Shown one piece after another: positions 2,671 to 6,796 of a stretch of DNA of 27,904 nt. The position numbers and the translations under genes are program-made. The notes under the pieces are model-generated. The model saw nothing but the letters and a program-made list of their open reading frames with translations. It searched no databases and was not told the DNA's origin. The stretch's first letter is position 1. The number at the start of each line of letters is the position of its first letter. The stretch spans positions 1 to 27,904 of the IMG/VR virus record IMGVR_UViG_3300005281_000077, one strand, 5' to 3'. Source of the stretch: a virus. Its lineage: Duplodnaviria > Caudoviricetes.

Positions 2671-2703
2671 CCTATTTACATATAATTATTTATATGTTAT
2701 TAT
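2671..2703 (+). promoter_or_regulatory. sigma-A promoter P3 with the same operator (copy 2 of the 33-bp repeat)
   Basis: Exact copy of 1358-1390. Confidence 0.8.
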
Positions 2704-2948: not shown

Positions 2949-3005
2949 CCCGCCTGATGATGGCCGGATGGGAACCGACCGAAACGTCCACCCGAGCGTC
3001 GCGGG
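2949..3005 (+). ncRNA. type I hammerhead ribozyme (one extra U after A9)
   Basis: Stem I CCCGC(2949-53)/GCGGG(3001-05); core CTGATGA(2954-60); stem II GGCCGG/CCGACC; GAAA(2981-84); stem III ACG/CGT; GTC triplet with predicted cleavage after 3000. Confidence 0.8.
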
Positions 3006-3033: not shown

Positions 3034-3073
3034 CCGCATAAGACCTCACCTTCGGGGAGGCAGCGGAAAGGAG
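3034..3073 (+). promoter_or_regulatory. conserved RBS-adjacent RNA hairpin motif, copy 1
   Basis: CCGC-ATAAGA-CCTC-A-CC-TTCG-GG-GAGG-CA-GCGG-AAAGGAG; homologous to 3635-3676. Confidence 0.65.
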
Positions 3074-3081
3074 AATGAACC

Positions 3082-3624
3082 ATGAAACTCTCTCAATTGC
3101 TTTCCACAAAAAAAGTTATCGCTTCTGGATTCGCGGCCATCGCTGGCCTGGGGGGCCACTCCAAAGGCACGGAAGAGGTTGTCCTGTCGTCGCTGGCTCC
3201 GTCCATCTTGGCGGAGCAAGGCGTGACGGAATACTATGCGCTGGAGCTTCCGCGCGGGACGGTGTTTAACACGCCGGAGGAGATTATCGCAGCCGATCCG
3301 GACGTGCGGCGCTACACGATCCAGTCGGTTGACAACGTGAGTGACCTGGACGTGGTGATTGTCTCCCGCCACGCAGGCACAGTAGCGCTCCTGCAAGACC
3401 GCTATCCGGGCGCTCAGGTACTCGACTCCGTGACGCCGGACCAAATCGCCGGCAAACACGTCGTCGGCACGCTCCCGCCGCATCTTATTACGGCAGCCGG
3501 AGCATATACAGCCGTTACGATTCGCGGGTTTGACTACGCCAAAGACGGGGACTTGGCGGGCCAGGAGTTGGCGGCGCGGATCGTCATCGCTGACAAGCCG
3601 CTCCGGGTCGTGGAGATTAACTAA
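3082..3624 (+). CDS. Csx16-like (VVA1548 family) putative ring nuclease with tandem-duplicated domain
   Basis: The C-terminal half has VIVSRHAGTV...VVGTLPPHL, matching the Csx16 SRHxG and VIGTLPxxL signatures; the N-terminal half resembles a degenerate copy. Confidence 0.7.
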   Translation: MKLSQLLSTKKVIASGFAAIAGLGGHSKGTEEVVLSSLAPSILAEQGVTEYYALELPRGTVFNTPEEIIAADPDVRRYTIQSVDNVSDLDVVIVSRHAGTVALLQDRYPGAQVLDSVTPDQIAGKHVVGTLPPHLITAAGAYTAVTIRGFDYAKDGDLAGQELAARIVIADKPLRVVEIN

Positions 3625-3634
3625 TCATAGCGAT

Positions 3635-3676
3635 GCGCATAAGTCCTCACCTAAGCGGGAGGCCGCGCGAAAGGAG
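3635..3676 (+). promoter_or_regulatory. conserved RBS-adjacent RNA hairpin motif, copy 2
   Basis: GCGC-ATAAGT-CCTC-A-CC-TAAGC-GG-GAGG-CC-GCGC-G-AAAGGAG; compensatory change in the outer stem versus copy 1. Confidence 0.65.
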
Positions 3677-3684
3677 TAGATATA

Positions 3685-4413
3685 ATGTTTAACATCGATT
3701 TTGTGTATGATTCGGCCAATCTGCCGAGTCAAACGGGCAAGGAAGGCATCCGGGCAGTCCTCAATTATCTCGACACCACGACGGGACAAATCAAGTCGAT
3801 TACGGGCAGGATTGGTTACGGAAGATATACCGCCGGTTTCAGTCGGGATGGAGGATTTTCCTCTAAGTCATATGGATTATCTATGGCGCAGGAGGGTATC
3901 CTGCTCAGGTATTTTAACAACAGCAACAACGGGAGCTGGACCTGGTTTATCCCAGACAATCTCTCCGAGATAGAGGGCGTTCTCGTTTTTGCTTTTACAG
4001 CACATGGCAGGTCCATCGACTCGTATGTCCAAAGTATTGACTACGGCTTGGTGCTAAAAGTCAACTTGAAGGACTATGGCGAGCGTCATCCGTTAAATTT
4101 GATTTATGACTCAATCAAATTTGATCAGTATCGACCCGTGTTTAATCTCTTTGGAGATTATTTGGCTGTCCTTTTGCTGTCGCTTTTGGCCGAGTATAAG
4201 GACGCATTAGCGTATACCTTTACTACCGGGTTATTAGTAGGCAAGACTTTGGGGTCTGCCCTGTATGATATTGCGTCTCGTAGACACTCGGCTTTTTTAG
4301 ATGCGATGTTGGCCGGAGATATCAAAGTCGATCCAGCCCAACTTTTGAGGGGGTCGAAGTACCTCGGGCGGGATCTGTATCCGCAATATTATTCGGCTAC
4401 GCCCACCCGATAA
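3685..4413 (+). CDS. hypothetical protein
   Basis: SD AAAGGAG 8 nt upstream; 242 aa; no family recognised. Confidence 0.75.
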   Translation: MFNIDFVYDSANLPSQTGKEGIRAVLNYLDTTTGQIKSITGRIGYGRYTAGFSRDGGFSSKSYGLSMAQEGILLRYFNNSNNGSWTWFIPDNLSEIEGVLVFAFTAHGRSIDSYVQSIDYGLVLKVNLKDYGERHPLNLIYDSIKFDQYRPVFNLFGDYLAVLLLSLLAEYKDALAYTFTTGLLVGKTLGSALYDIASRRHSAFLDAMLAGDIKVDPAQLLRGSKYLGRDLYPQYYSATPTR

Positions 4414-5705: not shown

Positions 5706-6140
5706 TTAATGAGTTATTCTTCTTTCTTTCAATAAATGCGGATTCCTTGATCTAATATCTTGTGCACTGATTCTTTGTTTTAAAATTTCATATGTGTTGC
5801 TATAAAGGGAATATTTTGAATGGATTATCGATAACTGCACTGGATCCATTGTTCGATTCCCGCATAATACGCTTAACTCCAACTCTGAAAAATATTCAAA
5901 TTCATAAAGAGCGTCAAGTTTAACAAATGAATCTCTTTTAAAAGGAGGAGAATATTTTAAAATTCGTTCATTGGAAGGCAAAGCAAGTTTATGCTCTTTT
6001 CCTTTTATTGACGATACGTTTAAAGCACGGATAAACTTATCGGAGGTTTCAATTACTAAAAATGTGCGGGGTTCTGAACACTCCGTTCCGTCTGCATAGA
6101 TTGCTTTTAGCAGCAATCCGTTACCAGCAGTGATTGGCAT
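5706..6140 (-). CDS. putative PemK/MazF-like toxin (PanT)
   Basis: Coupled to the Panacea gene (TAATG overlap); EPRTFLVI...ALNVSS...DSFVKLDALYEF resembles PemK RPxLVV..PITS..DSxVxxDQI. Confidence 0.55.
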   Translation of the reverse strand: MPITAGNGLLLKAIYADGTECSEPRTFLVIETSDKFIRALNVSSIKGKEHKLALPSNERILKYSPPFKRDSFVKLDALYEFEYFSELELSVLCGNRTMDPVQLSIIHSKYSLYSNTYEILKQRISAQDIRSRNPHLLKERRITH

Positions 6141-6796
6141 TAGAAAATCACTAAGCCAGCCGTTTCGTCTTTATAAATTGTATAAGAAGAATCTTCCCCG
6201 CTAAAAGATTCTAATATAGTCAATAAGTTGCTGTCGAGTTCAATTTCATTTGGGTCATAATAAAATTTCACATTATTTATTTCAATAAAATTGTCATTCA
6301 TTAAGCCATCCTCATAAGCTTTAATTGTCTCTTTAATGAGGTCAACTTCATTTTTCCGCAACTGATCTATCGTGATATAAGCATTTTCTTTCCACGAATA
6401 TCCACCACTAAGTGATCTACCGTATGATTCACGCCATGAAACATGTTCATGATTGATATCAGATAGCTCTGACGCAGACAATTGTCCGAAAATTTCCTCG
6501 ACAGTTTGGAGAGTGTCAAGTTGTTCGCTTGTAAGGTCAATTTTTTGAGAAAGCGCTCTGATTACATAATTTTGAAAATCGTGATGGTAAGGTTGTCTAA
6601 CAGTTTCAACTACAGACCCGTGTCTAAACGCATAAATCGTATCGTCGAATAATGGCTCATCATATTTTGCGAGATGAACTAATTGGGAGAAATATAACAA
6701 CTTTTGCAATTTCATATTTCCATCGAATGTATTTCTGGGTGTATCGTAATTGTTTTTTATAAACCAATAGGCGAATGGTTGGGCACTTCGGTACAT
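6140..6796 (-). CDS. Panacea/SocA (DUF4065) antitoxin
   Basis: NMKLQKLLYFSQ...PLFDDTIYAFRHGSVV...LSASELSDINHEHVSW signature; SD AAGGAGG. Confidence 0.85.
   Translation of the reverse strand: MYRSAQPFAYWFIKNNYDTPRNTFDGNMKLQKLLYFSQLVHLAKYDEPLFDDTIYAFRHGSVVETVRQPYHHDFQNYVIRALSQKIDLTSEQLDTLQTVEEIFGQLSASELSDINHEHVSWRESYGRSLSGGYSWKENAYITIDQLRKNEVDLIKETIKAYEDGLMNDNFIEINNVKFYYDPNEIELDSNLLTILESFSGEDSSYTIYKDETAGLVIF

Follow-up and report, generated by a model that had tools for sequence, protein, structure and literature searches.

Csx16 (PF09652 Cas_VVA1548, TIGR02620) is a proven ring nuclease. In a survey of type III systems, the single Csx16 that was assayed is specific for cA4 and leaves cA3 uncut, and Csx16 is reported in two phage genomes (PMC12409355). 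The same survey places ring nucleases only next to effectors using cA4, describes the loci encoding NucC as being without a known ring nuclease or off-switch, and considers that enzymes against other signals may await discovery (PMC12409355). NucC is described as activated by cA3 and serves CBASS too; a global survey, where cA4 is the signal for 84% of effectors, has it in only 35 loci.

Viral ring nucleases beyond AcrIII-1 have been described: AcrIII-2, Crn4 and viral Csx15. Crn4 and broad-specificity Csx15 can cut cA3, and their viral homologues have been proposed to be anti-CRISPRs (PMC12830947 and bioRxiv 2026.10.26.761840). The Crn4 paper names Acb1 as the only viral enzyme shown to degrade cA3, treats the cleavage of cA3 by a two-fold symmetric dimer as a puzzle, and speculates that cA3 occupies only one of the two sites. 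Related literature includes PMC13148439, bioRxiv 778746, PMC11317161, PMC8284326, PMC11229360 and PMC5135824.

Here we analyse a gene of 180 codons carried by a stretch of phage DNA of 27,904 nucleotides (the window). Its product resembles Csx16 in the SRH, GxLP and lid motifs, in a predicted small alpha/beta fold and in what may be a weak likeness to the AcrIII-1 family. It differs from Csx16, which is modelled as a homodimer of subunits of about 95 residues, in being one chain of 180 residues with two unequal repeats and one predicted site; moreover, its family is not found beside type III genes, and the protein scores below the Pfam cut-off and lacks a TIGR02620 match. It is a Csx16-derived variant that lacks several traits of Csx16 proper and probably acts like a ring nuclease. 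AcrIII-1 and Crn2 (DUF1874) differ as well: AcrIII-1 forms a symmetric homodimer and cleaves cA4 on either side, and our protein has no match to PF08960 at E up to 0.1. Crn4 and Csx15 are other families, symmetric dimers of broad specificity, whereas in tandem Csx16 the asymmetry lies within one chain. Csm6-2 has, like tandem Csx16, a dimeric nucleotide-binding unit duplicated into one chain, and SAVED and Can1 are further fused pseudo-dimeric sensors; all three belong to hosts, as effectors of the CARF/SAVED kind, whereas tandem Csx16 is a phage protein of the Csx16 type.

A sequence-only reading had presented this protein as a candidate new anti-type III ring nuclease. Its newness does not stand, since both the activity of Csx16 and its presence in phages figure in PMC12409355, and Bacillus phage Shbh1 gp42, a member of the family described below, may be one of the two phage entries there. 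A stand-alone Csx16 is also annotated in Methanobacterium virus Drs3. We found no description of a tandem or cA3-specific Csx16 in the literature searched, which lies outside subscription papers.

Two unequal Csx16-like repeats in one chain

The gene is a real open reading frame, preceded by a ribosome-binding site (Table 1). Of 506 candidates from a word-based search, 73 are full-length relatives of its product; Bacillus phage Shbh1 gp42 is one of these, and others belong to Cohnella, Paenibacillus and Clostridium scindens. A profile search over 1.84 billion representatives gave 574 matches, 150 of them among those listed. We collected 222 proteins, 125 of which span both halves and make up the set behind all counts out of 125. 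Clostridia, gut phages and Saccharibacteria MAGs are the source of many members, and some members already go under the label Csx16 or 'CRISPR related domain' in databases. Two long, Thr/Ser-rich repeat proteins matched by the profile (P0151, P0157) were rejected as false positives. Many members carry unrelated C-terminal extensions of 60-190 residues (L005, L007, L009, L015, L101; P0009, P0020, P0036 and others) and a few carry N-terminal ones; the extensions scanned have no Pfam match.

The Csx16 signatures first noticed by eye are present in the C-half as quoted: IVSRHAGT at residues 93-100, VVGTLPPHL at 127-135 and DL..QEL..RI at 157-167. This half matches Cas_VVA1548 over residues 93-147 (E 5e-5) with 23.8 bits, under the 25-bit cut-off that some homologues exceed (27.2 bits), and it matches Csx16 in PADLOC (E 5e-6). 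For the whole protein there was no match to TIGR02620, nor any in sequence searches of PHROGs and the PDB (the latter at E up to 10). The N-half was examined with a profile of 27 stand-alone proteins retrieved with the family profile, four fragments or split copies of the family being excluded. We call them Csx16-like rather than canonical because of this retrieval and because one of the six tested passes TIGR02620. A search at shorter lengths gave six proteins resembling family fragments or split copies. Residues 32-83, which the sequence-only reading had likened to the C-terminal part of the same fold, match this profile with an HH probability of 78.5 (E 1.7e-5) and a score of 30.7, compared with 19.4 for the best of 200 column shuffles. 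A further profile, built from 12 tandem Csx16 proteins, is colinear with that of the family across 170 columns (probability 99.3, E 1.4e-20), a score that probably derives mostly from the C-half, and the two halves compared directly are weakly alike (score 19.8-21.7, E 0.001-0.004).

The halves have kept different residues. The C-half keeps S95-R96-H97 and G129-T-L-P-P (H97 in 121 of 125 members, G129 in all 125). Its lid is remodelled to FDYxKDGDL, with the acid D157 retained and the Arg gone; D151, D155 and D157 are strongly conserved, making acidic a lid that is basic in Csx16. We considered FDYxKDGDL as an EF-hand and rejected this, since the usual lid of Csx16 lines up with D157, L158 and E162. 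The N-half, conversely, retains the lid P-R58-G (R in 119/125) and a GxLP-like motif and is missing the lid acid; it has neither the SRH motif nor a conserved His (H26 in 37/125). At the expected SRH position it has xGF (F17 in 121/125), an equivalence set by eye from the order of secondary structures, the lid positions being taken from profile alignments.

The AlphaFold2 model of the 180-residue protein (pLDDT 93.5) gives both halves the order strand-helix-strand-helix-strand-helix-strand, except that a short strand and helix are missing from the N-half, which has an extra N-terminal helix. The single-chain pTM of 0.85 indicates a confident placement of the halves relative to each other, and the predicted fold of the two repeats is a pseudo-dimer within one chain. 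Fold searches gave only weak matches, and what the N-half matches in the ESM Atlas (0.76) is probably the cluster of the family itself. The protein consists of two fused, unequal Csx16-like repeats: the homology of both halves and the split of their residues bear out the earlier proposal of an asymmetric tandem fusion with one half eroded.

Table 1. Features of the tandem Csx16-like gene and its leader in the window, and other tandem proteins compared with it.
Feature	Position	Strand	Basis
Promoter-like site, extended -10 sigma-70-type, with a near-palindrome between the boxes	2671-2703	+	Sequence
Type I hammerhead-like RNA in the gene leader, predicted	2949-3005	+	Descriptor match; variant stems in relatives
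Ribosome-binding site AAAGGAG, 8 nt before ATG	3067-3073	+	Sequence
Gene of the single-chain tandem Csx16-like protein, 180 aa	3082-3624	+	Open reading frame; 73 full-length homologues; AlphaFold2 pLDDT 93.5, pTM 0.85
N-half, residues 1-87, eroded Csx16 repeat	3082-3342	+	Profile alignments; folds alone, pLDDT 94.9
Arg58 codon, lid arginine predicted to act across the pseudo-dimer	3253-3255	+	Aligned to the stand-alone lid Arg; analogy with AcrIII-1 R85 and Crn2 R533
C-half, residues 88-180, Csx16 repeat	3343-3621	+	Pfam; HH probability 99.9 against the stand-alone profile; PADLOC
His97 codon, predicted general acid	3370-3372	+	121/125; role by analogy with AcrIII-1 H47
Asp157 codon, predicted partner acid of His	3550-3552	+	D/E in 121/125; analogy with Crn2 E536
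Fourteen further tandems: P0150, P0156, P0158, P0159, P0163, P0165, P0167, P0178, P0179, P0184, P0186, P0192, P0196, P0197			

A predicted split active site in tandem Csx16-like proteins

The distribution of the putative catalytic residues is complementary between the halves. H97 and D/E157 of the C-half occur together with R58 of the N-half in 116 of 125 members, and at the mirror positions a His is found in none, an acid in one and an Arg in eight. Better-known enzymes offer an analogy: the His of AcrIII-1 is the general acid and its lid Arg extends to the far half, while the lid Arg of Crn2 touches the opposite monomer and a Glu in its lid assists the His. The stand-alone Csx16-like proteins have the His in 26, the lid Arg in 23 and the lid acid in 25 of 27 cases. 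All three residues are in one chain in 21 of these 27 proteins, compared with 4 of 28 tandem halves. E88 of AcrIII-1 makes contact with the His across the subunit boundary; tandem Csx16, for which we infer a wiring within one half, would differ in this respect.

These tandem halves belong to 14 other proteins with two clear Csx16-like repeats (Table 1), of which four of the eight tested pass TIGR02620. All 14 have exactly one site with His and acid in one half and Arg in the other, the site being in the N-half in eight and in the C-half in six. When the halves were re-paired, this pattern had a p of 0.0014 (0.0029 after the removal of two close relatives), in a test that is post hoc (the tandem motifs were known beforehand) and on tandems that are partly related, with pairs up to 48% identical. 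Alternative wirings produce a site in only 3-6 of the 14. The complementary halves and the single split site in every one of these tandems argue for one composite active site, and the residues of the 180-residue protein point to such a site shared between its halves. This rule predicts the active-site residues of Csx16, which are not mapped in the literature covered.

The split also bears on whether the C-halves of two chains might form an ordinary symmetric Csx16 dimer, with the N-half as an accessory domain. The N-half is indeed confidently predicted to fold alone and its direct likeness to the C-half is weak, as such an arrangement would have it. However, the lid Arg is missing in the C-half (present in 8/125) and kept in the N-half, the arrangement of the halves is confident in the single-chain model, and all 14 other tandems obey the split-site rule, so that we hold this arrangement to be very improbable.

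One of the other tandems, P0158, passes TIGR02620 with 126.5 bits and aligns with Shbh1 gp42 in one unbroken stretch across both halves (residues 15-190, E 2e-4); no viral locus was found for it. The sequence clusters of the ten tandems looked up are near-singletons with no useful names, and a first metagenome scan found nothing. A tree of the halves is poorly resolved: each family half forms one clade and the other tandems appear scattered, which leaves the number of fusion origins unfixed.

Genomic context and leaders of the gene

The window belongs to a tailed phage whose minus strand encodes terminase, portal, capsid and tail proteins and the lysis functions. The gene lies past the lysis module, in a plus-strand accessory region with HTH, Gp111, HNH and ATP-dependent ligase genes. 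The regions of the tandem Csx16-like gene, ligase, endolysin and holin are common to the window and a Cohnella prophage (76-88% nucleotide identity), and this synteny makes a Paenibacillaceae host likely. No CRISPR spacer matching the window was found in 53 Cas10 loci.

The family is encoded in 11 IMG/VR loci, two named phages and prophages, as well as on an ICE and on a megaplasmid of Paenibacillus, and the 107 neighbours chosen from 16 family loci include no cas gene of type III. These contexts and neighbours support the phage setting of the first reading, in mobile elements rather than in a type III locus. An exception is a Saccharibacteria member (L019), which lies among housekeeping genes. 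ArdA adjoins one family member downstream. In the L008 phage the homologue is flanked by an N-terminal fragment of Cas8c and by Cas5c standing alone (483-1235 and 5753-6370), and a radical SAM gene also lies between these two; they may form a cas-derived anti-CRISPR cluster.

The promoter-like site upstream of the gene has an exact 33-nt copy at 1358-1390 and a weaker one at 467-499. It likely drives a 54-aa open reading frame and the tandem Csx16-like gene, in a window where the number of promoters is at chance level (6 vs 4.7). Small HTH genes close the first two modules (1005-1310, 2444-2656), an arrangement that resembles acr-aca cassettes. The open reading frame directly downstream (3685-4413, plus strand) encodes 242 residues that match nothing in Pfam, NCBIfam or PADLOC; its one PHROG match is at chance level. 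At 5706-6796 on the minus strand, a low-GC (35%) cassette of two genes, a Panacea/SocA-like antitoxin and a phrog_13386 partner, is probably a toxin-antitoxin moron.

The leader of the tandem gene contains a predicted hammerhead-like RNA, assigned by its match to the hammerhead core pattern. It has an additional U after the core and no hammerhead match in Rfam at E up to 5. Similar RNAs, whose stems differ yet pair, are found at L001 4645-4701, at L100 8915-8971 and in the L037 leader. In a Cohnella prophage (L029 1119-1189), a twister-sister ribozyme (50.4 bits, above the Rfam gathering score) lies immediately upstream of the homologous gene, and leaders judged by eye to resemble it occur in L003, L039 and L040. 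Two classes of putative self-cleaving RNA are thus predicted upstream of the gene in different phages. A leader made of a hairpin and a ribosome-binding site is repeated in the window, before the tandem gene (3036-3075) and before the 242-aa open reading frame (3637-3680), and occurs also in L001, L035, L037 and L102.

Signals of the probable hosts and the proposed function

Type III systems of the probable hosts were sampled in 401 Paenibacillaceae genomes, 46 of which have strong Cas10 matches, in 51 loci; weak matches to the Cas10 palm, those with E higher than 1.2e-9, occurred in 124 of 170 genomes and were excluded as probable GGDEF proteins. NucC-like genes are present in 48 of these 51 loci (L080-L099, L104-L136). 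When two loci from other carrier genomes are included, a NucC-like gene lies within about 10 kb in 50 of 53, a count in which the NucC profile was built from 17 of the 50 loci and then found 33 of the other 36, the genomes being related. Carrier genomes G002 and G003 both have NucC-like genes. The PDB and PADLOC confirmed the NucC identity of the examples tested, and NucC is split into two open reading frames at L096 10436-11298 (genome G365) and L104 998-2096. G365 also carries a tandem Csx16 gene on a prophage. Among the genes scanned in the 53 loci, CARF-HEPN effectors occur in two and one locus lacks an effector; none of the loci has a Csx16-like gene. By analogy with the NucC family, we assume that these NucC-like proteins of 285-374 residues respond to cA3. 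The near-exclusive pairing of Cas10 and NucC in Paenibacillaceae is a separate observation that can be checked in its own right.

The sequence-only reading had entertained a less symmetric signal as the ligand, an idea that gains real support from the presence of NucC at 50 of 53 host Cas10 loci. The cA4-specific AcrIII-1 family, moreover, is found in none of the 401 Paenibacillaceae (its control worked), and this absence, together with the pairing of Cas10 and NucC, favours cA3 for this phage. The clostridial members are left unexplained, and they count against cA3. Many members are found in Clostridia, where type III systems are mostly without NucC: of 186 genomes sampled across the phylum, 42 have Cas10 and six have NucC, with NucC near none of 52 Cas10 matches. 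The link to cA3 is thus shown only for Paenibacillaceae and the two other carrier genomes.

We propose, with a probability of roughly 40%, that the fused Csx16-like pseudo-dimer with one composite site is an anti-defence ring nuclease that opens cA3, and possibly cA4, and so keeps off NucC-based defence by type III CRISPR and by CBASS. The proposal builds on the tandem build, the complementary residue split, the mobile-element contexts and the NucC genes beside nearly all Cas10 genes of the host family, all of which are observed. The ring of the cyclic oligoadenylate would be held in the cleft between the halves, and the N-half lid with Arg58 would shut over the C-half site. His97, assisted by Asp157, would protonate the leaving group during a metal-independent attack by the 2'-OH, so that a single cut at the His97 site would linearise the ring. 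The dead half may have been remodelled for a smaller, odd-membered ligand.

The protein could instead be a cA4-specific anti-type III ring nuclease in which the fusion merely abolishes the need to dimerise, acting by one nick or by two cuts through rebinding. The tested Csx16 cuts only cA4 (PMC12409355), cA4 is the signal of 84% of known type III effectors, and the Clostridia infected by members have type III loci mostly not linked to NucC. Yet a CARF-HEPN effector is present in only 2 of the 53 probable-host Cas10 loci, among the genes scanned, AcrIII-1 was not found in the 401 Paenibacillaceae, and the repeated loss of exactly one site (14/14) is unexpected with a symmetric substrate. We consider cA4 specificity unlikely, if worth weighing.

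A different asymmetric signal might also be bound or cut, such as CBASS cAAG or dinucleotides, SAM-AMP or linear oligoadenylates, or the protein could be a low-turnover sponge. The C-half lid, rebuilt and acidic, is unlike the basic lid of Csx16, CBASS also uses NucC, and some Csx15 proteins are described as sponging or cutting CBASS trinucleotides. Against these possibilities, the putative catalytic His, acid and Arg are retained (all three in 116/125), and sponging is considered weak against the large signal output of type III systems; we judge these possibilities, taken together, quite unlikely.

The carriers themselves raise the question of a role outside immunity, for instance at RNA ends or in binding host proteins, with ring-nuclease activity lost or incidental. 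The tandem family is present in 5 of the 401 Paenibacillaceae, one of them the search centre, and only one of these five has a strong Cas10 match. The family member among housekeeping genes is in line with such a role, as is SIRV2 gp37, which belongs to the AcrIII-1 family and is reported to block a methyltransferase of the host while not working as an anti-CRISPR when infection is native (bioRxiv 2023.01.10.523387). Against this, it is the nucleotide-binding cleft whose residues are conserved, other anti-defence genes are among the neighbours, and the same asymmetric site recurs across diverse tandems, which makes a non-immune role improbable.

In its widest form, the proposal of a cA3 ring nuclease becomes tentative and, taken whole, somewhat doubtful: tandem fusion, repeated in both orientations, would have broken the symmetry of a cA4 nuclease and produced a dedicated cA3 ring nuclease. 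The phage family would then be an anti-NucC system of Paenibacillaceae and Bacillaceae, directed at both type III and CBASS, and the other one-site tandems would be the missing off-switches, or anti-defence proteins, for odd-membered cyclic nucleotides. A natural single-chain Csx16 with one site makes both the question of a cA3 off-switch and the puzzle of the symmetric dimer testable with one small protein.
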